64,000 bases of DNA from Podospora anserina (Eukaryota): assembly GCA_017654855.1 (NCBI GenBank), contig CM030337.1:1860001-1924000 (forward strand), read 5' to 3'. The position numbers were made by a program, and so were the translations under genes. The notes beneath the pieces are model-generated. The model saw only the letters and a list, made by a program, of their open reading frames with translations. It was not told the DNA's origin and ran no database searches. Shown here piece after piece: positions 10,400-40,653 of this stretch. The stretch's first letter is position 1; every line of letters begins with the position of its first letter.

Positions 10400-11043
10400 T
10401 GTGGTTTGATATCAACTGGGTAAGTTGAAAGCAGGTGAAAATGCCTTTTTCCTTGAAGTGAGATATGTGGAGAGAGGCTGGTGGAAAAAAGTCGTGCAGT
10501 TTCCGTGAAGAAGATTCTAGCGATGAGATCTCCGAATTCGAAAGTAGAAGATCACTGAGCTTCTGTCGACTTTGTCAGTGATGTTGATTTTCAGTTCAAG
10601 TCAAACCAAAGCCTGAGGTCGCCTGTGGCTTGCCTGCAACGCCTTCATCTTGGATTTCCAGCAAGCCACTTCCGGAACCCCACTACGAAGCTTGGACCAC
10701 ACACGCACAAGCCACAGCTCTGGGAAAATGTTTAAACTTCTGAAAAATTTATCGCGACTTGCTTTTCCTCTCTTCCACACAACACTGCAACCTTTCCTCA
10801 TGGCCAACACCCGACTTTACAACCGACAAACCAATCCTTTTGCGACCTCCTTCTCCTTTCAAGTTTAGCCTCTCTTGAAAGAGCGTCTATTTATCATGGA
10901 CTCGCTTTGGTCGCTAGGAACCTGATCGGAGAGGTGGTTGCAAAGGCTTGGCCAGGCAGAGGGGTCGCTGGACTGACAACTAACCCAGCTCTGGCCAGCT
11001 CTACGCTGGATACAGTACGTTTTTTCTTCACCTTCCCCGTCCT

Positions 11044-11114
11044 ATGATGATCTTATACACACAGTTCTCGCGATTTTCTCTGAGCGCTTTTGAACTACAT
11101 GCACTACCATCTGA
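11044..11114 (+). ncRNA. snR55: Box C/D snoRNA, snR55/SNORD33-like (18S Um1269 equivalent)
   Basis: C box ATGATGA 11044, D box CTGA 11111, terminal stem GTCC/GGAC. Guide CATGCACTACCA pairs with 18S UGGUGGUGCAUG (one G.U); the D+5 rule selects the U equivalent to yeast Um1269. Confidence 0.85.
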
Positions 11115-11286
11115 CTGGACACCCTCTTTTCAACTCGTCACAAGCCCACCTTGGTTGACAGCTTTGACTAACAAGTTGTAGCAGGATTTCTTTCTTGACC
11201 CAACTGACAGCTACATCCCGCCATCGCTTCGACAACATAGTAACACAGTCAAGGTACGAATGGCTTTTTCCTCATCCCCGGCTTTT

Positions 11287-11360
11287 ATGATGAAAAAAAT
11301 ATTTTTCAGTTCTGCTTCTGAATTATAATGAGCGACAACCCTATACCAAAACTTTTCTGA
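11287..11360 (+). ncRNA. snR61: Box C/D snoRNA, snR61/SNORD38-like (25S Am1133 equivalent)
   Basis: C box ATGATGA 11287; guide CAGTTCTGCTT 11307-11317 before D' CTGA 11318 pairs with LSU AAGCAGAACUG; D box CTGA 11357; GGC/GCC terminal stem. Confidence 0.85.
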
Positions 11361-11527
11361 TGCCATCTCTCTTTTCTTTCACATTTCACCACTCCCCAAT
11401 TATTGACAGTTTTTGCTGACTGTTATCAAAGTTAGGGACATTGACTCGTCGACGACTGTGGTCACACCTCATCTACCGGACTGTCTGGGTATGTTTTATC
11501 GTCAAACTCGCGCCCCCTTCGTCCATC

Positions 11528-24909: not shown

Positions 24910-24964
24910 AGCCATCGCGACGCGTTCTCTCTACACTTAACATCATTTTTCTCCACAACCCAAC

Positions 24965-26644
24965 ATGCCACCTACTTTAAAAGAAGCGAGGGTAATCTTA
25001 GCCCTCGAAGCTCTTCAGAATGATGAGCGTTTAAGCGTCAGAGCAGCAGCGAGGCTCTACAATATTCCAGAATCAACGCTCCGTAACCGACGCGCTGGCC
25101 GGCCTGCACGACGCGATACCACGCCCAAATCGAAAAAGCTCACTCAATCCGAAGAGGATGCTATTGTTCAATACATTATTGAGCTATGTGCGCGAGCTTT
25201 TCCACCAAGATTGCGTGGTGTGGAAGATATGGCCAACCAACTGCTACGTATACGCGACGCGCCCCCTGTTAGCAAGCTTTGGGCACACAACTTCGTTAAA
25301 CGCCAGCCACAACTCCGTACACGTTTTACGCGTAGATACGATTACCAGAGGGCTAAGTGCGAGGATCTAAAGGTCATGGCCGAGTGGTTTACGCTTGTAC
25401 GGAATACTAAGGCTAAGTACGGTATTATAGATAACGATATTTATAATTTCGACGAGACTGGGTTTATGATGGGCATTATCTTCGCGGGTATAGTAGTTAC
25501 GACCTCGGACGGCCTTAATAAGGCAAAACTAGCCCAGCCTAGTACCCGCGAATGGGCAATAGTGATCCAGGGAGTTAATGCCTTCGGCTAGGCTATCCCT
25601 CCTTTTATTATTTTAGCCGCGCAGTACCACCTTACTAACTAATATACCGAATATAACCTACCGTCTACCTAGCGCATCGCAACCACCGATAATAACTGGA
25701 CTATTAATCTAGTAGGCCTAGATTAAATTAAGCACTTCGATTATTATATAGCGTCCCGTATAAAAGGTAAATACCGGTTGTTGATCCTCCACGGCCACGA
25801 AAGCCACTACTCGACCGAATTCGAGCGCCACTGCCAGCAGAATAATATTATTACGCTCTGCATGCCTCTACACTCCTCCCACCTCCTCCAGCCACTCGAT
25901 ATTAGCTGCTTTGGGCCGTTAAAACAGGCGTACGGTCGCCAGATCGAGGACTTAATGCGCATGCATATCAACTATATAAGCAAGCTCGAGTTCCTCTATG
26001 CCTTCCGCGAGGCCTTCATTACCTCTATAACAAAGAAGAATATATAGGGTGGCTTTGCGGGTGCTGGCCTTATACCGTACGATCCAGAGAGGGTGCTTTC
26101 CAAGCTGGATATAAAGCTTCGTACGCCAACACCTCTAAACTCGCGGCCCGGCACTGCACAACCTTAGGTCTCCCAGACACCACACAACCCTCGAGAAGCC
26201 AACTCACAGTCAACGCTCATCAAGACTCGCATTACCAACCATCAAAATAGCTCCCCGACTTTAATGCTGGCTGCGGTAGACCAGCTTACTAAGGGTACAA
26301 CGGCTATAATGCACCAGGTGGCTCTCCTTCGTGCAGAGGTCTCTTCGCTCCGTAAGGCCAATGAGGCACTAAGTAAGCGCCGGAGAGCCAAAAAAACACG
26401 TGTGAGGCTTGAAGGGTTACTTACTGTACAAGAGGCACAGGATCTACTGGATCAGAAGGCCGTGGATAAGGAGGGAGTGCAAGAAACGCAGCCGGATAGT
26501 AGTAATACAGGGGGGGCTCGTACGAAGGTTCAGTGCTGTGGTGTATGCGGTAAGCCTGGCCATAATGCGCGCACTTGCCAGGAGGCTGCAGAAGCATCTG
26601 ATTCAGCTGTTTCTGATGTAATTATAGTTAATTCCTTGTGTTGA
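24965..26644 (+). pseudogene. pogo/Fot1 DDE transposase (HTH_psq, CENP-B HTH, DDE_1, C-terminal zinc knuckle) with premature stops
   Basis: YNFDETGF, LIL(H)GHESH, HLLQPLD, CGVCGKPGHNARTC in one frame. In-frame stops at 25589, 25640, 25670, 25724, 26045 and 26165. Confidence 0.93.
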
Positions 26645-28942: not shown

Positions 28943-31209
28943 ATGGCTGACCCGCTGAGTCTTGTGGCCAGCGCTATCGCCATTATCCAGGGTGGTGAAA
29001 AGCTGCGAAAGCTTGTTCGTAAGGCTCAGCAACTTAATAAAGTACCCGTAGAAGTCGAGCTTCTTCTTCAAGAGATCTCGGAAGCCAGGACATCCTTCAC
29101 CTCTCTCCAATCTACCGTCATTGCGGCTGCCCAAGGTGCCAGACCCATCAATTTTGAGGCATTACGGAGCCTGCTTCATCAATATGCTTCTCTCCTTGAC
29201 TCTATGGAGCTGCTGGTGGACAAGTATCTTCTCAAATCGCCCAAGCAAGATGCTGAGGGGGGAGATGAAAGGGCAGGAATGGGGAGGTCTGTTGTGAGGC
29301 TGGGATGGGTTCGGAAAAAGACAAAGGTGCATGAGATGCAAGACAAGCTTCGGAATGTCCGCTTTCTGATCGTTGGTGAGCTGGCAGTTATGTCTCCGTA
29401 AGTAACCATGGCATGGGCCTCTTCGTAAACTGGCAACGGACTGACGTGTACGCAGATTCTCCCAGGCTGAGCTGTGTAAAACAGTCCAGACTCATCTATC
29501 TCGACAGGAGAAGCTTCTTACACAGATACTACATACCGCAGAGAGCGAAAACTACGCGTCAGCGGCTCTAGGGGTAGTTACTACCGCATCCAAGCCAAAC
29601 GAGTTACCACTGGCCAAGACAGAGGAAACCCAGACAATAGCAGAGGGAATGACAAAGGTGAATCATCAGAATCTTCCTCTTGGGCCTATACCATCGACTT
29701 TCATGTGCGGCCCATGCAAGTGTGCCTGCCGCAGCACATGGACACTGCTGTTAACGACATGGAAGAATCTCGGTGGCACAGTAGCCATGCGATCTCGTGG
29801 ATCCCTTTCCAACACAAGGACTGCGACGTCTCGTCTTGCAAACGCAGATCACAACCCATGATTAGCGGCGCATTTCACCTCCCACACTGGATCGCCTCCC
29901 GCGCGATCATACTCACCCTCATCAACGGACCCTCCATATCCGTCTCGCTGACAGTCGCACACATTGTCCCCCCCGACTCGGACATCTTCCGCTACATCCA
30001 GACGGGCAACTGCTCTCGTCTGCAAACCCTGCTCCTCAAAGGCCAAGCTTCTCCCGCAGACATGATCGAGTCTCTGTACGGGACCCTCGACGCCCTCCTT
30101 TTCGCCCTCAACTGCAACCAATACGAGATTTGCCAGCTCCTCCTCTCCTGGGGTGCCGACCCCATGCTGAAAACAGCACCAAGCTGACCGACTCGGCCGC
30201 CAACATGGCCTGGAATCTTTCCATCGAGTGTCCGTCCCCAGCCAACAACGCACGGAAACACCTCATCGAGTCTACATTCCTGGCCCCGTTGGACCTCGAC
30301 CGCCGCCAGTTCTCACTCCTGCACAAGACTGTCCTCGGTCTTGCCTACACCAACCTCCCAGCACTGCTCGCTACCTGCTCACCCGACGCCCTCAACGCCC
30401 GCGACTGTCATGGCCGTACCGCTGTCCTCATGGCCGCCTGGCGCGGCGATCTGAAAGCCGTGACTGAAATCCTCGCAGCTGGCGCCGATCCCGACTTGCA
30501 CGATGGTGGTGGCCGCTCCCCGCTGCATTACGCAGCTATGACGGCATCGGATGTTTGTACTCGGGCCCTGGTGCGGGGTGGTGCGGATGTCAACAAGGTC
30601 GACAATTATGGTGAGACGCCGCTGCATTGTGCGTGTAGCTGCGCCCGCTTGGCCAATGTAGAGTACCTCCTATCTGTGGGGGCGTGGCTGGACATGGCAA
30701 ACGAGGGGGGAGTGACGCCTCTTATGGCGGCAGTCATGGCGGGAGATGTGGGGGTTGTTGAGGCGTTGATAGCATACGGGGTGAACGTGGAGGTCAAGAA
30801 TAAGGGTGGTGAGACGGCGGTTGGGCTGGCGGTGTGGGGGGACCAGACGGATATTGTGGGGGTGTTGGTCGATAAGCACAAAGGGAGAGCGAGGCTTGAT
30901 GTTCACAATGATAGTGGGAGAACGGTGCTACACACCGCTGCGAGATATGCGGGGGTTCAGACAATGAAGAGGTTGCTGTTGAGCTTTGGAGAGCAACCTC
31001 CAGGGGAAAGTGGTGTTAGACTAGGAAGTAGGGTCGACGGGCAGGGGATGACTGCGCTGGAGAGGTTGATGGAAAGTGGGGACTTGACGAGGGAGTTGGT
31101 CAAGTGTTTTGAAGCGTTGTTGGTCAAGTCTACAAGAATCAGTCCTTCGAAGGATGTGGAGGAATTGTACAAAGCCTGGGGAGGAAATAGAGGGATTAAG
31201 CTCAAGTGA
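28943..31209 (+). pseudogene. HeLo-like/SesA-type N-terminal domain + Cys-rich linker + ankyrin repeats; intron 29398-29455; two single-base frameshifts
   Basis: MADPLSLVASAIAIIQ N-terminus, CKCAC/C...C linker, about 6 ANK repeats (GRTAVLMAA, GRSPLHYAA, GETPLHCAC, GVTPLMAAV, GETAVGLAV, GRTVLHTAA). Frame breaks near 29800 and 30160. Confidence 0.8.
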
Positions 31210-31414
31210 CTCGGATGATGAGGTCTTGTGACGGCTAAAGAAAAGGTAGAGTCGCTGGTTTTGGTTTTATACAAGGAAACAAACCCATCTCCTTTGCTAC
31301 GAGCTTTTTACGATGAACTCTCTGCGCCAGAACTTTGATCAGATTCGGCGCCGCTGACGTCGAAACAAAGCTTATGCCCGGTGAGAGCCGAGCGTGAATT
31401 TGTTTTAGCATCGG

Positions 31415-31421
31415 TTATAGG
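31415..31421 (+). promoter_or_regulatory. TATA-like upstream element of the 5S gene (about -29)
   Basis: TTATAGG at the position where dispersed Neurospora-type 5S genes carry a TATA-like box. Confidence 0.5.
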
Positions 31422-31444
31422 TCGCAAAACGAACAGGAGTTATC

Positions 31445-31512
31445 ACATACGACCATAGATAGCAGAAAGCTCGGGATCCCGTCCGCTCTCCCTTAGATAA
31501 GCTGCTAATCGC
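31445..31512 (+). rRNA. 5S rRNA gene, 5' half (nt 1-68), interrupted
   Basis: ACATACGACCATA...CTCGGGATCCCGTCCGCTCTCCC.TAGATAAGC matches ascomycete 5S; helix II GATAGCAG/CTGCTAATC pairs; similarity stops abruptly after 31512. Confidence 0.93.
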
Positions 31513-31775
31513 AATGTTATCTTCCGGGATGGCTTTTGCCCCACTCTTTTGCTGAGTCAGCACCCGAACGTTTTGGCTTCCGCAAGAGGCTCAACACCAC
31601 CTTTTTCAGCAATCGCAACGGACGGCACCGTCTTGTTGGCTTCACCCCTCTCGCTCTCACGCCGTGGCCTCCCATGATGGCCGGCATTTTCTGCGCCCGG
31701 ACAGGGCGGTATTTTTGGCTCTTATCTTCCCCGCTCCCACCTGCCGTTGTTCGCGCCCTAATACCTGGCTAACCT

Positions 31776-31866
31776 GCTCATCGTCCGTCCTGCGCTTCGT
31801 CCTGCGCTCCTCATCGTCCTGCGCTCCTCATCGTCCTGCGCTCCTCATCGTCGTGCGCTTCTTCGA
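31776..31866 (+). repeat. 17-bp minisatellite CCTGCGCTCCTCATCGT
   Basis: Three perfect copies at 31801-31851 plus degenerate flanking copies. Confidence 0.9.
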
Positions 31867-31898
31867 CCCCGCGCTCTCGCTGCTTTTGCCTACCCACG

Positions 31899-32683
31899 AT
31901 GGTTGATCTGGACGCTAGACGTCGTCGCGCTCAACAGGGCCCCCAAGCTACCGATGTCGTTCCCTCCTACCCGCGCAGGCTTGGTCCTAGGATTGAAGAT
32001 GATCAATAATGCGTGGCCGAGTCTGCATTGGAATGTGTGGGATTATTACATGAAGGCTGGGGGGAGTTATTTTGGGGCGAAGGTGGGGGATAAATTAGTT
32101 GCCTGGGTGCACAGTCTGGGCTTCAAACCAGGTAAGCCTCTTCTGACGACATCCCAGTTGCGCACTCATCACATGGCATGCATGCATCTAACACATTGAA
32201 ACCAAAGAGGACTAACCCCCAACAATAAGGGCTCTCATGCTATCCCGGCGCGGGCCCTTGTTTCGTGCCAACGAGCTGGAGGACAAGATCCGCGCTTACA
32301 ACATCAAGCTTGTCCTGGACGAGTGCGCAACCCACGACGACCTCGACAAGTCGATGGAGCAGTATCTGACGCCAATCAAGGAACTATCGCTCATGGACCA
32401 CGAAGATGCAAATAGCCAGGCTATTAGGGCCATTGGGTTTGTTAGAGAGTGCTTGGTCGTGCCGTCGTCCAAGGAGGTGACGAGGTTCCATAAGAGGACG
32501 GACAAGAAGTTTGATGAGCTTCTCAGGGAGTTGATTCACTCGGCCAACTCGAGGGGTGAAGGGGTGAACAGAGATGGCCTCCAGCGCGCGTTAAACTATG
32601 AAGCGGAGAAGCTTGAAAAAAGAGGGCTTGATGACTGGTTTTGGCAGACGCGCGAGTATTTGGAGACTTTGATGGAGCATTGA
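31899..32683 (+). pseudogene. Two-exon gene of unknown function with disrupted exon 1; possible Myb/SANT-like N-terminus
   Basis: ATG 31899; GTAAGC donor 32132, CTAAC branch point, AAG acceptor 32229 splice in frame to the 148-aa ORF. Exon 1 has two in-frame stops. Confidence 0.5.
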
Positions 32684-33840
32684 TTGATGTGGGTAGCCAG
32701 AAGATGTACGTTCAATTGTTGACCCGAAAGGTGCAAAACGATGTGTAGAATAGGTAGCTATCGCGCTACTCTAGTAACAATCCCAAAGCACGAATTTCCC
32801 TTCCTCCTTCACACTGTGCTCCGCAGCCAGTAAACTCCTCAAGGGCAGGGCATGGCATCGTAAGAGCCCTGTTGCCGCTTATTATCCTTGATACGAAGCG
32901 CTGGTAGAGCAGGTGGCTTGCCCGCAATCCACTTTCTTCGTGGTGGTAGTCGTTGTGGTTTTGCCATCGGTGGTAGTGACAACCTTGGTCGTGGTAGAGG
33001 TGGTGCACCTGAATGTTATGTCAACTCTAGGACACTTTTCTATGGTCGACTCAGCTAGCTCACATCTTGAAAGACTAGATTTGTGGCAGGAGCTTTGTTC
33101 AAAGGTCAGTACCGTAGGCACGCATGTCTAGTTGCTTAAAGCTTCTTAATATGATGACAAAGTAGAAGAGGTTGATAGGTACCTAGGTATCCTGAGCTGG
33201 TCACTAACCCTGGGCTTCTGGGATTGAATGCAGATTGCGGCGTGGTTGGTGTTTGCTGTAGCGTTTGCAATGATGAAGAAAAGGAGAAAACATATTTGCG
33301 GCATAGGGGAAGTTACCCCAGGCTTTATAGACAGTGTCCAACACCTTAAACCCAACCACCTCCCACTTGTCGTCACCAGGGACTTTCCTCAAGCAGGCAG
33401 GCTCTCGTGCTGACCAAACATTGAATCAAGCCGCAGGAAAAGTGCATTTTTCTTACTTTGGCCGATCATATTGGTCATAGATACGGCGACCGGCTGCAGG
33501 GAATAGTACATTTGCAGCGAGAGATCACCGAGGGAGGTCCCCGTAGACTGGATAACTAGCTTGGTGATAATTGTGGCGTTTGCCCAAACCCAGTTGAAGA
33601 GCCGTATAATAACATGGTGTTGAGCCACCTAGATAAGGTAGGCTTCCAGCCAGCACGGGCCACCTAATGAGGCTTTTGTCCCACCATCCAATATTGATGC
33701 ACAAATCGAAAGTGCCGGGGCAGTTTCACTTGTTGTTGGTCCCACCACGACAAACACAAAAACACAACACCAAACACCTCAACGTGCCGGAGAGACATGA
33801 CTGCACAACCATCAGAGCTTTCAAGTTAATTTCTAGTACC

Positions 33841-34683
33841 ATGGCGAACGATCATGATGGAACTCACACGGTGGTCGAGAAAACACAGCCAACCATTACA
33901 TCCTACCATGACCTGACCATCGTGGAGTCACAGGACGCCGAAACTGGACTCGCCAAGTCTTGCATGTTCCTGCATATCACCCAAGATGAAGAGGTCTACT
34001 TCGGCAAAACTACACGCAACAAGAGAGAATTATCTTTTGACGAGATCGGCCAACTCCTTACCCGCATCCCGGATGAGGAGATCTTCCCCGCAATCCCAAA
34101 AGACATCGAGTTGACCCTTGCACCTGATCACATCAACGACGCGAACTCCTTCCTCAAACGACCTGGTATACAGCACTATGACGACTTCGTCGGTACAGAC
34201 TTTGTCTGGAAGGAACTCCTTCATGAGACCCTTATCATGGAGAAGATCTCCAAGGCACCGCACCCGTATATCATCCGCTACCTTGGTTGTCGTACTTGCC
34301 GTGGCCGTATCACATCCTTCTTTGTGGAACGACTGAACCAGACGCTTGATCAGTACGTCAATGCCCCCGATGGGTTTGAGCCTCTTGACAATGAGAGGTT
34401 TCTTGCTGGTGTCCAATCAGCGATCGACTACCTTCACTCTTTGGGACTGGCACACAATGACTTGAATCCGCAAAACATCATGGTTCGGGACGGGATGCCG
34501 GTGCTGATTGACTTTGGGGGATGCGCTCCGTTTGGAGAAGTGGTGCAATCATGTGGAACGCCTGGTTGGTGCGAGGAGTTCATTCGTCACTCCAAAAAGG
34601 AGCATGATGAGTATGGTTTGAGGAAATTGGAGGAGTGGTTAAGGGAGAAGCAGGAGGGGAATAAATGGGGAAAAGTCGAATGA
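33841..34683 (+). CDS. Fungal protein kinase-like protein (about 280 aa, intronless)
   Basis: FLKRP (beta3 Lys), alphaC LHETLIME, HPYIIRYLGC, catalytic HNDLNPQNIM, DFG, GTPGW. Confidence 0.85.
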   Translation: MANDHDGTHTVVEKTQPTITSYHDLTIVESQDAETGLAKSCMFLHITQDEEVYFGKTTRNKRELSFDEIGQLLTRIPDEEIFPAIPKDIELTLAPDHINDANSFLKRPGIQHYDDFVGTDFVWKELLHETLIMEKISKAPHPYIIRYLGCRTCRGRITSFFVERLNQTLDQYVNAPDGFEPLDNERFLAGVQSAIDYLHSLGLAHNDLNPQNIMVRDGMPVLIDFGGCAPFGEVVQSCGTPGWCEEFIRHSKKEHDEYGLRKLEEWLREKQEGNKWGKVE

Positions 34684-35398
34684 GGCTTCTGTGGAGGTGA
34701 ATGATGCTGTATCCCAGAGCTAGAGCGGCCTTGACTACATCCCACAATCGGGTTTCGATGGGTGAATACCTTACCTTATGTTTGTCATCTTGGCGGTCAG
34801 ATTTGGTTGGCGGGTCTGCGGGCCGATGTTCAGGGTTGCTGTTGGTGTCAGACTTTTTAACGTTGGTTGATTTGAAATAATGAATGTGCTTCAGCTGGGT
34901 CGGTTTTGTCAAACATATTTCCTTTGGATGTGTGTTGTTGTGGGCTCACGGGCTCAGTGGTAGCATATTTGGAGCTAATTTTGCCAGCTAACGTGCTGGC
35001 AATGATGGACCTGTTCTGTCAGTCTTTCGGAGCTTCCAAATCCAAGCCTGTTCTACCGTAGCATTTCTCCGTCACTAGTATAGGGCTGACATGTGCGCTG
35101 TATAATGTGTGCACAGTCAGCCATAGTTCCGCTGTTGTGTCTCGTTTGGGCATCTCCAGCGACGATCGTGCATCGCTGAGAGACACACACCCTCCGGCTT
35201 TCCGAATCATATCAACGGTTCTGATTTGCTTAACCGGTTCTGATGAAACTGCATGCAAGGCATTGGATGTCACCCTTCAAGACTGCGACTTTGGCCAGAC
35301 GATAAGAATTATGACATGAACCGAACGAGACACTTGAATCCTTTCTTCTCTCTCAGACCTCTCAGAGCTTCACGTTTTACTCAACCATTGACATAAAA

Positions 35399-36661
35399 AT
35401 GGATCTCTTACTAGATAAAACCCCCCCCATGAGCTGGACCCTAGCCATCCAGATCATCTTCGCAACCCTCACATCCATCATCCTCCACCGCCGCCTCCTC
35501 CACCCCCTCTCCCCCATCCCCGGCCCAACCCTCGCCTCCATCTCCCGCCTCTGGCACATCCGCCACATCCTCAAAGGCGACCAAAACACCCAACTCATCT
35601 CCCTCCACAAAAAACACGGCCACTTCGTCCGCCTCGCCCACAACGAAGTCTCCGTCTCCCACCCCGACGCCATCAAAAAGATCCTCGGAAACTCTCACCT
35701 CAGAAAAGGTCCCTGGTACCGCATGACCGCCATCCCAGACTACCGCTTCCAAAGCCCCATGGCCACCACCGACCCAAAGAAGAAGATGGGAAAAAGCAAG
35801 GCTTTTGCCTCGGGGTACGCCCTCACCAACGTGTTACGGTCAGAACCCCAGGTCGACAACGTCATCTCCTTGCTTCTCAGCCACCTCGACCGTTTTGCCC
35901 AAACAGGGGAACAGGTTAATCTAGACAAGTATTTCACATTCACGTCCTTTGATGTAGCAGGGGAGATCCTCTTCTCCAGTCAATTCGGCTTCTTGAAAAC
36001 AGGGACTGATATTGGGAACGCAATTGCGAATGGGTACTGGTTGTCAATGTACGCTTCTGCCATGGCATTTTATTATTATTTTCATGTTGCGCTGCTGGGG
36101 AACCTGGTGGTTACCTGGTTGAATATTCTGCCTTATGGGCATTTATTTGAGACGACGATTAAAGCGATGAAGACGAGGTTGCGGGATAAAAGAGATGATG
36201 AGTCGAGGTTTGATAGTGTGGGGTGCTGGTTTAGGGCGATGGAGAAGGATCCTGAGAGAATCAAGTGGCGGGATGTGCAGGCTGTGACGGTGAGTACGGT
36301 TGGGGCGGCGAGTGAGACGGTTAGTTGCGCTTTGCAGAGTTTTGTGTATTATATGATACGGACACCGGGGGTTTGGGGGAGGGCTAGAGGGGAGGTGTTG
36401 GAGTTGCAAGGGAGAGAAGGGGGAGGGGAGGGGAGGGTGGTGAGTTGGGGACAGGCGAAGAGGTTGGTTTATCTGCAGGCTTGTATTAAGGAAGGACTGA
36501 GGATGTTTGCGCCTGTGGCGATGAACTTGCCTAGGGTGGTGGGACCGGAGGGGTTGGAGATTGGGGGGAGAAGGTTTGGAATGGGGACGATCTTGTCTGT
36601 GAATTCTTGGGTGATGCATTTCTCTGAGGAGATATGGGGCAAAGATGCGGGGGAGTTCAAA
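35399..36661 (+). pseudogene. Cytochrome P450 (pisatin-demethylase-like), 3'-truncated
   Basis: TM anchor, IPGP, I-helix GAASET, K-helix KEGLR. Similarity ends at WGKDAGEFK, so the PER motif and heme-binding Cys motif are absent. Confidence 0.88.
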
Positions 36662-37008
36662 CTGATCTTTTGCTTCTTGCATATCGATATACACTCAAAG
36701 TACACACCGGACAACTTTTTGGGGAGCATTTAGAAGTGGAGATAAACACTTTACTAGGGTTATTCGACACCCTTATCAGGCCAGATCACACGCAGTATCT
36801 CCTGCTCTTTCCTTGCTTCTTAACTGGGCTGGCATGTCCGCGGAAAGACCAGCAGCAGAGAATAGAGACCCTTATTCTGGGGATCTATTCTTATACACAG
36901 TTCAACAACGCGTTGCATGCACTCAACTTTCTTCGGAACACTTGGGAATCTAGAACGAGGGGGGCGAGACCACCCCTTTGGGGCTTTGAGGGTTTTGTAC
37001 CAGCATAG
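36661..37008 (+). pseudogene. C-terminal fragment resembling a fungal transcription-factor domain (Fungal_trans_2-like)
   Basis: LLLLAYRYTL...LLFPCFLTGLAC...QQQRI...FNNALHALNFLRNTW, in a different frame from the P450. Confidence 0.6.
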
Positions 37009-37069
37009 CTGTGATCTACACCGTTAGTTTACCCTAGCAATCCACTTTTATCCTGCTACCTTATTACCT

Positions 37070-37145
37070 ATCATCACCCAACCATTCCAAGTGTCCAATC
37101 AACCTATCACCAACCCATCGTCACCCAACCACTCCAGGTGTCCAA
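37070..37145 (+). repeat. 29-bp direct repeat x2, subterminal in the insertion
   Basis: ATCATCACCCAACCATTCCAAGTGTCCAA (37070) versus ATCGTCACCCAACCACTCCAGGTGTCCAA (37117), three transitions. Confidence 0.85.
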
Positions 37146-37387
37146 CGTGTCAACCAACCATGCTGCGGGGTTTCTGTGGGCCTACCTCAAAATGATCGGT
37201 ACCTTGGCTTAGCCCGTATCTTGTGCTCGGCATGGGTGTGTCCGCATTGTCCGCCAACTAACGGTGGAAACGGGCTCAAGCTGTGCCGTTCCATATCCGT
37301 TTACCGGCATAGTGTCTTCAATATCTTGAGGTAAACAATATACTCTTTTTGGAGCTTCCCATCCTCACAGTTATCCTACATGACCGC

Positions 37388-37438
37388 CAGATCAGTACTC
37401 AGGTGGGTGACCACTGGGGAATCCCTGGTGTTGTATGT
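37388..37438 (+). rRNA. 5S rRNA gene, 3' half (nt 69-119), followed by oligo-T Pol III terminator
   Basis: CAGATCAGTACTCAGGTGGGTGACCACTGGGGAATCCCTGGTGTTGTATGT then TTTT; its 3' end pairs with ACATACGAC at 31445 (helix I). Confidence 0.93.
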
Positions 37439-37872
37439 TTTTGGCTCCATTCTCAAGACTTGGCACTAGCCCCCTTTTTGTCCGTGAGCTGTCACCACCC
37501 TTCTCCTGTTGAGAAAAACAAAAGCACAAAGAAGTAAGTTGAGGATAGCAGCCTGTTTGAAAGGAGTGACTTCTATTCGACTTGAAATGAGAAGACTAGA
37601 AATACAGGAACAAAATGCAAGCTATATACACATATACATAAGAGGCAGACTCTCTGCTCTAAACAAATGGCCAGTTACTTGGGTATCAATGAGTGTAGCA
37701 TTGGCCACCTGTGCCAACAAGACAAGGAAAAATGTTTCTCGACCATCAGGAAATGACACAGGAAAAATGAATGTTGTGCCTTGGTGGCCTGCCATCCAGT
37801 CACCTGTTGTTCATGTCGGTTTCGTGTCGTCAGCTCTTTCCACCCCGGAGCTCCATATCCACACAGCCTTGC

Positions 37873-38761
37873 TTAAGCCTCAAAGTCCTCCAAGAACTCA
37901 GCCAGCACATCGGGATCCCTCAAATCACCATCAAGCTCGACCGCCCTTTGGATGAGCGCCTGCAGCTTCATCTCCGACGCCTTCACGCTGCGAGCGAGGA
38001 GGCGTCTGGCGTTCGCAGCTCCAGTGTCAGTGCCGTTGTTTCCATTGCCAACCTCCACATTGTTGTCAGCGTTGTTGTTACCAGCTGCGCCAGCCATCTG
38101 CACCGGCACAACACCCCCGAACGGTCCAGCTCTGGCGCTGTTCTGGCACCTCACAAGGCAGACATTCTCCTGACCAGCGACAGTCCCCGTGCACTGCTGG
38201 TTAGCGGGGATGCTAGCCGTCAGGGGGAAAGCGGTAGTTTGTCCTTGCTGTAATCCTCATTGTCAGTCATGATTCCTCGTGATATAGTCTGAAATCGCTG
38301 GAGAGACTTACCCGATTGCGAGAGTTGCGCCCTGGGACATTTTGTGTGACTTGGATGTTGGACCATTGTTGGCCTGTGGCATCGGCATTGATCATGCACT
38401 GGTAGGGACCACCGCCATCGGCGTTGACCTGGTGAAGCATCATCGAGACCTCACCTCCTGGGGTGACCTGGGGAAGCTGGTCTCCTGTCTCAGCGAGAAT
38501 AGCCCTCGTGCCGGCTTCAAGCTGGTTATCGCCGGCACCGATCGTCTCGCCAAAGGTTTGAGCAGACGAGCCACGGAAGCGGGTGGAGTCCTGCTGGAAG
38601 GGACGGCGGCGGGTGCCGTCACGGGGAGTGGTGGTGTCGATGCCGAGGGCCATGCCGGAGCCGCCTGCGTTGCCGGTTGCTTGGACGATGGCGCCATGGG
38701 CGGTGACGAGGGGGAGGACCGGGAGGAGGAGGGTGAGAAGGGTGGTGAGAGAGGGAGACAT
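37873..38761 (-). CDS. Secreted Egh16/Gas1(MAS)-like protein (DUF3129); exons 38761-38312, 38247-37873
   Basis: Signal peptide then [39 protein letters not shown]...AGPFGG. Confidence 0.88.
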
Positions 38762-40653
38762 GATGAGGAGGTGAGGTTGGTGTTTTTTGAAGAAGTGAAT
38801 AAAGTGATAGAGGTTGTAAAGGGGACCCTGCCGGCGGGAGGTTGGAAAAGATAGATGTGAATAGAAGAAGGTGCTGAGTTGGTCTCCTGGACGCTTGAGG
38901 GTGAAGGTGAGGATGAAGATGTAGAACTGGCTGATGAGAGAGGGATGGTAATGGCTTCTTATAGACAATTCTCTCAGCCCTCTCGTCCATATCGTTGTGA
39001 TCATGAGTCCACCACATCTTGGTCGACTGCCGCCCCTGTGAGCCGACACCCGAGTTTGCCAGCACATTCTCTCTGTCTGTTTTCATCCGATGTTGTCGAA
39101 ACTTACCCCTCAAGTGACGAGAAATCGCTCAGGCACGTAGCAACAACCGCTTCGGGCAAGTTGCGTCGACTCCAAAACACTTGCCCAGGAGCTTCATCGT
39201 GAGGCAGTGCTGAGCGCCAGAGTTTCGAGGGGTCTTGTCGACGGCCTCCTTCCCCTCCGCAGCAGATACCAAGCAGTCAGTACTAGTGCATCTCTCGCCG
39301 TGCTGTCATCCAGGAAGACCGGTGAAGCTTGAAGAACTGCTGACTTTAGCAGCCAGCCAGCTAGAAGTTGTAAGTACGCTGAACTTCATTTCCTGGGTGA
39401 TCCACAATAGCCATGAAGCTGATCTGGGGATCACGATAGTGTTAGCAGGAGAGATCACCTAGCCTGTTTGCCAATGCATGCATTCAACTTACAGATCTAC
39501 AAACAGAGTCTTCCTGTCGTGGTCCCTGATGGCAGACCCGAGATCCGTCTTGGCTCCGGATGCCACACTACTCGCTTTGACTGTTCGGTTGGACAAATAA
39601 GCTTTGACAGGTTGGCAAACCATCCATCACCGTCGCCGAGATATCCCGTAAGCCAGTAAGAACTCGTGATGGCTGCCCAGAGTTGTAGTTGCAAGACGAA
39701 ACATCTGTGCACCAGAAACAGTAACCCGGTTAGACATCTTGGCGATAAAATCCCCGAGAGCTGTCACCCTGATGGCAGGTTTCATCGTGTTCGACCAATA
39801 GGGCTGCAAGACTTATTGCACCCCAGCAAAGTCTTGAAAGCGATGCCAAAAAGCAGTTTGAGGACTCGGTGAGTTATCCTTGTGGCTTGCTGTGCTCTAA
39901 AAAAGCCTTTTTACGCGACAGATCTCATTCTTTAAAGACTATCCTCATCATCAGTTCATTTTTGGACATAGAAGTAAGACAAGAAAGCGCTGTTGAGGTT
40001 ATCAGTCGCAGGCGGAGCCTCGATAATTGGCTGCTCAAAATCAGTTTCACGAACTCTTCTCTTTCCCTACAAGGGGATTTTTTGGGAGTGGCTGTGCACG
40101 CATGATTATTCTTTTGTTCTTTTGCTTCTAGTTTCGAGCAAAAAAACAAGGGTGAGAAATCCGGGGATCTGCTGAAACGTTTGTTCGATCTCGCAGCCTT
40201 GCTGTCGATCAAACGCGGCGAACCCCTTTCACAAGGGCTCAAGAAACCACCACCTGCCAATCGCATCAGCACCGCTATCGAGAAAATAAACCTGAAGAAA
40301 CATTTCAACATCACATAAACTTAGATATTGGTATGCTGCCGGAAGCGCTAAAACGCATGGATGGTTATTCGCAGGTTTCTCAGCATGTGAGCACCAGGCC
40401 ATGCCGGAGATCCAGAGCGGAAACACCATCCATGGTGTGGCAGCCATAGAAAATATTTGAGCAGCGATGAAATAACAGAGGGCTTCCCTTTGAGCTTCTC
40501 AAAACAGGATATTGTCTGGTAGTTTCACCGTCCACTCAGAAGGGGGCCCGATGGTCTCTGCCCCTGAGGATGTCGAAGTATTGACCGGGACGGGTCAAAG
40601 TATCGTATCGCGAAGTTGGCCGTTCTGCTGCCCGTGAAGACATGAAAGTGGTG

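Follow-up and report, generated by a model that had tools for sequence, protein, structure and literature searches.

A 5S ribosomal RNA gene of Podospora anserina split by a 5.9-kb gene-bearing insert, a possible relic of a 5S-targeting mobile element

Some Starship elements of ascomycete fungi, whose 'captain', the first gene at the 5' end, encodes a tyrosine recombinase with a DUF3435 domain, insert within dispersed 5S ribosomal RNA (rRNA) genes and fragment the gene they enter; they include Voyager of Macrophomina phaseolina, Osiris of Aspergillus fumigatus and elements of the Arwing, Enterprise and Voyager families (PMC9156397, PMC11162782, 10.1101/2024.06.28.601215). At least five separate 5S target sites have been reported for Starships, 5S ribosomal DNA (rDNA) accounts for 23% of 222 curated insertion sites, and the direct repeats of the 5S-targeting elements measure 6-16 bp (PMC11162782). 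Voyager's insertion point lies 20 bp from the start of the 5S gene, and 'derelict' Starships that have no captain are documented (PMC9156397). Captains can also work in trans, as on an engineered mini-element (PMC10104507). Here we describe a locus of P. anserina at which a dispersed 5S gene is likewise split, in this case by a gene-carrying insert of 5868 bp. It lies in a window of 64,000 nt (assembly GCA_017654855.1, contig CM030337.1, positions 1,860,001 to 1,924,000), and all coordinates below and in Table 1 are those of the window.

Table 1. Features of the split 5S locus, its insert and the adjoining host genes, in window coordinates
Feature	Position	Strand	Basis and remarks
Ankyrin-repeat host gene, left flank	29866..31209	+	Pfam Ank_2, E = 3.5e-33
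TATA-like box	31416..31419	+	about -29 to -26 of the 5S start; read from the sequence
5S rRNA gene, 5' part (nt 1-68)	31445..31512	+	apparently a minor isotype, helix II strands GATAGCAG and CTGCTAATC; RF00001, 35.9 bits; helix II forms in the joined fold
Left repeat copy TAATCGC (5S nt 62-68), native	31506..31512	+	pairs with its own helix II 5' strand; the join keeping this copy folds canonically
Inserted segment, 5868 bp, single copy, without terminal inverted repeats	31513..37380	+	depth in the DNA run; list of inverted pairs
Left-end stretch with a 92% relative elsewhere	31588..31649	+	X4 contig 21, beside another 5S 5' part
Tandem repeat, five copies of a 17-bp unit (CTCCTCATCGTCCTGCG-like)	31774..31857	+	260 nt inside the left end
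Internal fragment like GH2 exo-beta-D-glucosaminidase	31993..32091	+	matches PDB 2vzs residues 641-673 of 1032, E = 7e-6
Intron, 76 nt, GT..AG	32132..32207	+	joint 32129->32206 (cut +2) in 3/3 'RNA?' runs and 0/1 DNA run
148-aa open reading frame, no known family (Pa_6_2040 type)	32237..32683	+	exact sequence in the protein collection
Spliced transcript, possible 106-aa open reading frame	32839..33304	-	introns 33093-33182 and 33009-33063; CT..AC joints in 3/3 'RNA?' runs; coding putative
Protein kinase-like gene, 280 aa, intact (Pa_6_2030 type)	33841..34683	+	Pfam Pkinase, E = 7.8e-15
Cytochrome P450 pseudogene	35399..36661 (reading frame continues to 36733)	+	Pfam p450 profile positions 6-384 of 462
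C-terminal fragment of a Fungal_trans_2 transcription factor, natural stop codon	36679..37008	+	PF11951 profile positions 274-365 of 384
Last 5 nt of the insert, CTACA	37376..37380	+	shared with the related right end in the X15 contig
Right repeat copy TGACCGC (5S nt 62-68 of other isotypes)	37381..37387	+	contigs of intact 5S genes align from 37381
5S rRNA gene, 3' part (nt 69-119)	37388..37438	+	RF00001, 28.3 bits; T-run at 37438-37442
Egh16-like host gene, right flank	38267..39082	-	PF11327, E = 4.5e-40; intron 38248-38311 in RNA contigs

The window was scanned with Rfam model RF00001, whose gathering score is 38 bits, both at gathering level and in E-value mode. At gathering level the whole window yielded no 5S gene, each half of the split gene falling below the score when taken singly (35.9 and 28.3 against 38 bits). 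E-value mode gave four matches across the 64 kb, of which the two halves were the sole 5S ones, as partial matches on the plus strand at 31445-31528 and 37338-37439. The 5S letters themselves have narrower limits, stopping near 31512 and restarting near 37381-37388. Joined by coordinates, the halves amount to 119 nt with the canonical three-helix (three-way) 5S fold, at -36.3 kcal/mol compared with a shuffle mean of -30.9 (standard deviation 3.5).

Public sequencing runs provided a further measure of completeness. For the stretch 29500-39499, 24 runs were listed, and four were aligned to the window: one DNA run (X4) and three designated 'RNA?' (X15, X17 and X20). In the run contigs, intact 5S paralogs have 16 letters between the anchors 31496 and 37388 and 22 between 31496 and 37394; the halves supply exactly 16 and 22, so that no 5S letter is missing or extra, apart from the 7-nt repeat described below. 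A first-pass annotation of the window had proposed that same-strand halves join here to a complete 119-nt 5S gene with an upstream TATA-like box and a T-run terminator. The partial Rfam matches, the fold and the paralog spacing uphold this proposal, the insertion into this dispersed gene is precise, and both signals are in place (Table 1). The genome holds several 5S isotypes with compensating changes in helix II (for example GGCAGTTG with CAATTGACC as against GATAGCAG with CTGCTAATC, seen in the run contigs), and the isotype that was split seems to be a minor one among the genome's 5S copies.

The 7 nt that precede the right half, at 37381-37387, are 5S-derived as well. Contigs of intact 5S copies (from DNA run X4 and from runs X15 and X20, including an abundant X20 5S contig of depth 1480) align from 37381, not from 37388; for contigs of isotypes that have TGAGG here, alignment begins no earlier than 37386. 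An imperfect direct repeat of 7 bp is thus common to the ends of both pieces, reading TAATCGC in the left copy and TGACCGC in the right, which leaves 31513-37380 as the unique insert. The first-pass annotation had placed 5875 bp between the halves; with this correction the unique insert measures 5868 bp. The two repeat copies have different origins. A join that keeps TAATCGC forms helix II, whereas one that keeps TGACCGC does not; since the left copy fits its own helix II and the right copy has the form of other isotypes, the left is native to the target and the right arrived with the insert. TGACCGC occurs 8 times in the 128,000 positions of the window, a chance placement of about 6e-5 per position.

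The same annotation had suggested confirming both junctions. The left one is bridged by a contig of DNA run X4, an independent assembly from a run without a flag as possible source of the window, that covers 31463-31826; at the right one an X4 contig (36455-37415) continues for 28 nt beyond the junction, 3 nt short of the 31 nt that our rule for bridging asks for. Depth in the DNA run is about 44-59 in the bins of the insert interior and 80 in the left-end bin, with 46-53 in the flanks, and this equality makes the insert single copy. It opens with AATGTT and closes with CTACA. Its GC content of 0.48-0.54 is like that of the flanks, with no compositional anomaly, and heavy repeat-induced point mutation was for this reason rejected as unlikely. 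Exact searches of metagenome contigs found no match to 23 nt across the right junction and none to 23 nt of 5S core with TGACCGC.

Ends related to those of the insert appear to lie beside 5S pieces elsewhere in the genome. In X4 contig 21 (length 5627 nt, depth 52.7), a 25-nt 5S piece (31472-31496) is followed after about 95 letters by 62 nt that match 31588-31649 with 5 mismatches; this layout mirrors that of the split locus, where the corresponding gap is 91 nt, and the rest of the contig has no alignment at 90% identity or more. For the right end, a contig of run X15 matches from 37376 (CTACATGACCGC followed by the 5S 3' part). The 30 letters before this match score 9 against 37346-37375, where the null mean is 2.4 and 0.15% of 8000 null windows reach as much. 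These related ends suggest that the split locus was not a unique event.

The insert is a mosaic of two intact open reading frames (ORFs), one spliced transcript and three gene fragments. The kinase, P450 and transcription factor fragment of the first-pass list, which also names an unknown gene, were confirmed by Pfam matches to Pkinase, to p450 (cut at position 384 of 462) and to the C-terminal piece of Fungal_trans_2. The 148-aa ORF has no Pfam match at E up to 10; the GH2 fragment and the spliced minus-strand transcript are additions to that list. The P450 is 86% identical to Pa_5_10450 over residues 1-421, where the alignment ends at GEFK; roughly 92 C-terminal residues, with the haem-binding end, are missing from it, and the tail of the transcription factor is fused on. 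That tail has weak relatives only: a search for longer homologs scored none of 219 candidates, and a representative search gave 5 matches at E up to 1e-3, with a best identity of 40%. The GH2 fragment now lies in a transcript's first exon, where it serves as an upstream ORF, and it reaches its stop after splicing. For the 148-aa ORF, atlas matches (at most 0.87, with recognition below threshold) were disregarded.

The insert is transcribed and spliced. None of the listed runs is on record as RNA; the three aligned 'RNA?' runs nonetheless contain spliced contigs, which fall in the region of the 148-aa gene, in the kinase and in the P450 and transcription factor region, and RNA contigs cover the kinase-like gene over about 33732-35051.

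The distribution of the cargo among Podospora species, traced in protein clusters at 90% identity, bears on the age of the insert. The kinase cluster includes P. pseudopauciseta (QC763_602030) and P. pseudoanserina, and that of the 148-aa ORF includes P. pseudoanserina QC764_602040; P. comata and P. pseudocomata are in neither, and both are in the cluster of the paralog Pa_5_10450. A 604-aa gene model of P. pseudoanserina joins the kinase with a P450 that shares both the truncation and the tail. Since the truncation is common to P. anserina and P. pseudoanserina, the decay is older than their split, and the shared decayed structure points to an old fixed relic and argues against a currently mobile 'mini Starship'. 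In P. anserina the P450 with its out-of-context tail (35399-36733) has been annotated as a 444-aa 'Putative Cytochrome P450'; this model and the 604-aa kinase-P450 model are probably annotation artefacts over the pseudogene.

P. anserina and P. pauciseta are sister to the rest of the species complex, in which gene-tree conflict is widespread (PMC10936905). The species pattern of the kinase and the 148-aa ORF conflicts with this species tree, as expected for an insertion polymorphism, and its patchiness fits a polymorphism that was sorted or introgressed, or else repeated loss. A tree was made from 15 P450 rows, picked from the top ones of 212 matches and from the cluster members. In it the cargo P450, on a long branch (0.18), is sister to the whole-complex Pa_5_10450 clade (support 98/94 and 98/98), with Triangularia outside, a placement that points to either an old paralog or a copy that came from a lineage beyond the complex. 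Triangularia verruculosa has a kinase of 70% and a P450 of 82% identity.

We hold, with moderate confidence, that the insert is the old remnant, no longer mobile, of a mobile element with dispersed 5S genes as its specific target, most likely an element of Starship type with a tyrosine recombinase. Three observations add to the case for 5S targeting: the 7-bp repeat falls within the reported range of 6-16 bp, its right copy is that of another isotype, and related ends stand beside 5S pieces. A Starship origin in particular is plausible and unproven, and we give it about an even chance; membership cannot be claimed, because a captain, the marker genes of degraded Starships and terminal inverted repeats are absent and the size is outside the curated range.

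A rough course of events can be proposed. The element would earlier have sat in another 5S isotype, or would have had its attachment end from one, and for this reason its right end would carry ...CTACA-TGACCGC. It would then have integrated at nt 62-68 of a minor-isotype 5S gene, leaving the target's TAATCGC on the left and its own TGACCGC on the right. This would have parted the 5S start from the part of the internal promoter that lies downstream, and the split copy should be silenced. Internal deletions would later have removed the captain recombinase gene and most of the cargo, the residue being the GH2 and P450-transcription factor pieces beside intact expressed cargo (the kinase-like gene, the 148-aa ORF and the small antisense transcript). 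The decayed state would predate the separation of P. anserina and P. pseudoanserina, and the insert would by now have come to be in every P. anserina run examined. One homolog of the captain Kirc, Pa_5_10116, has been reported in P. anserina strain S, where it is pseudogenised (PMC8092012), and this fits an element that is now immobile.

Like the 5S-targeting Starships, the locus combines direct repeats with a 5S motif (here 7 bp), unrelated host-type cargo and a patchy presence in close relatives. Flanking repeats that match the target are a Starship trait and are present here, as TAATCGC and TGACCGC both correspond to 5S nt 62-68. Unlike Voyager, with its site 20 bp from the 5S start, the insert sits at nt 62-68, and unlike the 5S-targeting Starships as a group it has neither a DUF3435 captain nor DUF3723, FRE, PLP or NLR genes nor terminal inverted repeats. 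The first-pass description of a 'captain-less, very small deletion derivative' fares unevenly: the gene fragments (a P450 that ends at GEFK and runs into a transcription factor tail, and an internal piece of GH2) agree with deletion, and the missing captain, Starship marker genes and inverted repeats do not help to tie the derivative to a Starship.

Several points weigh against the origin we propose. A search for DUF3435 or another recombinase found none in the 8 insert ORFs (Pfam), in the 6 ORFs of the end regions (E up to 1) or in the 16 other window ORFs scanned (30 ORFs in total). DUF3723, FRE, PLP and NLR genes are absent, the Pfam matches of the insert being Pkinase, p450 and Fungal_trans_2 only. 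No terminal inverted repeats, an optional trait of Starships, are found among the 25 longest of 92 inverted pairs, and inspection by eye shows only ATGT/ACAT. The insert measures 5868 bp, whereas curated Starships span 15-511 kb, the smallest having 15,020 bp, in a survey that dropped everything below 15 kb (PMC11162782). It is single copy. An empty site was not seen in any of the 14 high-share DNA runs, which all carry the insert. The repeat copies are identical at only 5 of 7 positions, with only CGC exact. Finally, the evidence for related ends consists of two contig fragments only (25 + 62 nt and 30 + 12 nt).

That the insert holds no transposase, reverse transcriptase or recombinase had been noted in the first-pass annotation, and we likewise found none among the ORFs scanned. 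A captain remnant in the 490-bp left or the 370-bp right end region was considered and rejected, with 0 of 6 ORFs matching a recombinase. Bacterial integrative and conjugative elements and prophages that reside in tRNA genes integrate site-specifically and bring their own copy of part of the target, so that the repeat copies can differ. An analogy between bacterial tRNA-gene elements and Starships has been drawn before (PMC9156397). Those elements usually restore their target gene. The 5S gene, by contrast, stays split, and the insert resides in a eukaryote and has no integrase.

Two other groups of elements invite comparison. Derelict Starships have lost the captain, their cargo persists and is expressed, and they are a source of differences in gene content between relatives, all of which resembles the present locus; unlike it, they are large and are recognised by at least three matches to FRE, DUF3723, PLP or NLR genes without DUF3435, whereas the insert has none and is known by its target and its ends only (PMC9156397). 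Enterprise with its Spok block belongs to the same host genus; it is a large transposon that carries cargo, has a short repeat on either side and lacks terminal inverted repeats, and decayed copies of it are known in P. anserina (Vogan et al. 2021, PMC8092012). In contrast to the insert, it targets RGGTAG within a palindrome rather than 5S genes and has Kirc as its first ORF (PMC8092012).

Several other explanations can be weighed against the same evidence. A double-strand break in the 5S gene, which is transcribed by RNA polymerase III, could have been filled with patchwork genomic DNA (filler DNA), with no mobile element at work. This would account for the mosaic of unrelated gene fragments with abrupt joints, for the single copy and for the absence of terminal inverted repeats and transposase genes. 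However, no 5S nucleotide was lost and 7 nt were duplicated, and the fill-in of a staggered break cannot produce a right copy that belongs to a different isotype. Related ends adjoin 5S pieces elsewhere, and two complete ORFs and a spliced transcript, all of them transcribed, would be unusual for filler DNA. Taken together, the exact split, the 7-bp repeat whose right copy is foreign and the related ends at other 5S pieces speak for an element that integrates specifically into 5S genes and against random break repair, which we regard as unlikely.

Recombination could also have copied an older split 5S locus into this one, the insert and its TGACCGC end being transferred by ectopic gene conversion or double crossover with the 5S halves as homology arms, and with no transposase acting at the site. 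A 5S-rDNA-assisted spread that resembles such copying has reportedly been proposed for the wtf genes of fission yeasts. The right repeat copy from another isotype, the second locus with related ends beside 5S pieces and the lack of a recombinase among the scanned ORFs would all follow. Yet the first insertion into a 5S gene would still need other means; any donor must since have been lost or have diverged strongly, since at 90% identity or more only this one copy of the insert is present; and, with the left 5S part native as far as the junction, the conversion tract would have had to end exactly at the edge of homology. We therefore think such copying rather improbable as the origin of the locus.

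The remnant of a 5S-specific element that we favour could have a more particular history, although we put this forward with considerable doubt. A compact captain-less 'shuttle' family in Podospora and related Sordariales might have kept only its ends (...CTACA-TGACCGC on the right) and been moved between 5S genes at nt 62-68 by the recombinase of a full-length relative, acting in trans. Such a shuttle would be a non-autonomous Starship, comparable to a miniature inverted-repeat transposable element (MITE), a counterpart so far only built artificially (miniHephaestus, PMC10104507).

Another class of transposon would be an equally doubtful source, namely a non-autonomous DNA transposon that captures gene fragments and duplicates 7 bp of its target site, in the manner of a Pack-MULE or a Dada element. 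Dada elements make duplications of 6-7 bp and target small-RNA genes. They are not known from fungi. The length of the repeat agrees with such an element, as does a size below 10 kb with gene fragments, which is also found in Pack-MULEs and Helitrons (PMC11162782). But a true target-site duplication consists of two identical native copies, and the right copy here is foreign; there are also no terminal inverted repeats and no Helitron-type ends, and no transposase remnant was found among the scanned ORFs. The traits of non-autonomous Helitrons, Pack-MULEs and DDE elements are thus absent, the 25 longest of 92 inverted pairs containing no terminal inverted repeat and the repeat copies differing at 2 of 7 positions. 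A Helitron was rejected on its ends, AATGTT... and ...CTACA, which do not fit TC...CTRR with a hairpin.

Finally, it is most improbable that the halves are leftovers of two separate 5S genes, truncated at the 3' and the 5' side respectively, with 5.9 kb of ordinary ancestral sequence between them: the overlapping 7 nt do differ (TAATCGC and TGACCGC), as if from two isotypes, and 15 of 87 P. anserina 5S genes are not full length (PMC2441463), but two independent truncations would by coincidence have had to yield halves of one orientation that meet at a shared nucleotide and overlap by 7 nt, the intervening genes are absent from the clusters of P. comata and P. pseudocomata, and related ends occur at other 5S pieces.

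Starship surveys start at the captain gene and drop elements below 15 kb, so that small captain-less relics are invisible to them. Here the relic is revealed by its target: the 5S gene is split, and the direct repeat at the split, whose copies do not match, records an origin in another 5S isotype. If the related ends were independent insertions, P. anserina would offer a tractable host with a 5S-specific element family, an attachment core at 5S nt 62-68 and a natural minimal element for mobilisation in trans. The insert also explains where the lineage-restricted kinase and 148-aa genes (6_2030 and 6_2040 in the annotations of sister species) come from, and likewise the origin of the P450 pseudogene that is annotated as a gene in P. 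anserina. We found no description of the split locus in the literature on Podospora 5S rDNA or 5S rRNA and Starships, nor under the gene names Pa_6_2020 to Pa_6_2050.

At least two genotypes carry the insert. The share of words of the stretch 29500-39499 was 0.99-1.00 in 14 of the 24 runs, 0.56-0.77 in six 'RNA?' runs and at most 0.03 in the remaining four, and the insert is present in all 14 of the high-share DNA runs. The three aligned 'RNA?' runs, which come from three studies, share two differences from the window and from DNA run X4 (35897 G>T and 37847 G>A), from which the count of genotypes follows. The P450 product gave a 100% search match to a protein of P. anserina S mat+, with Ala in the window and Ser in that protein at residue 167. 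The codon of this residue includes the variable position 35897, where G>T changes Ala to Ser, in agreement with the deposited strain S protein.

The surroundings of the insert, on chromosome 6, are those of an ordinary core chromosome, with GDA1, Sec7/GBF1, Anp1, RNase PH and NUDIX genes in the window besides the ankyrin-repeat and Egh16-like genes that flank the split 5S gene. About 6 kb to the left of it, an ORF at 24941-25591 (plus strand) has HTH_psq and Tc5-transposase DNA-binding domains (E = 3e-8 and 1e-5) and is either the remnant of a pogo/Tc5-type transposase or a CENP-B-like gene. Farther away, a box C/D small nucleolar RNA (snoRNA) of the snR61/Z1 family was found at 11282-11363 (plus strand; 70.2 bits, above the gathering score), and 160 nt upstream of it a weak snoRNA-like match to the SNORD33 family at 11039-11120 (plus strand; 29.9 bits, E = 0.31); the two may form a small snoRNA cluster.

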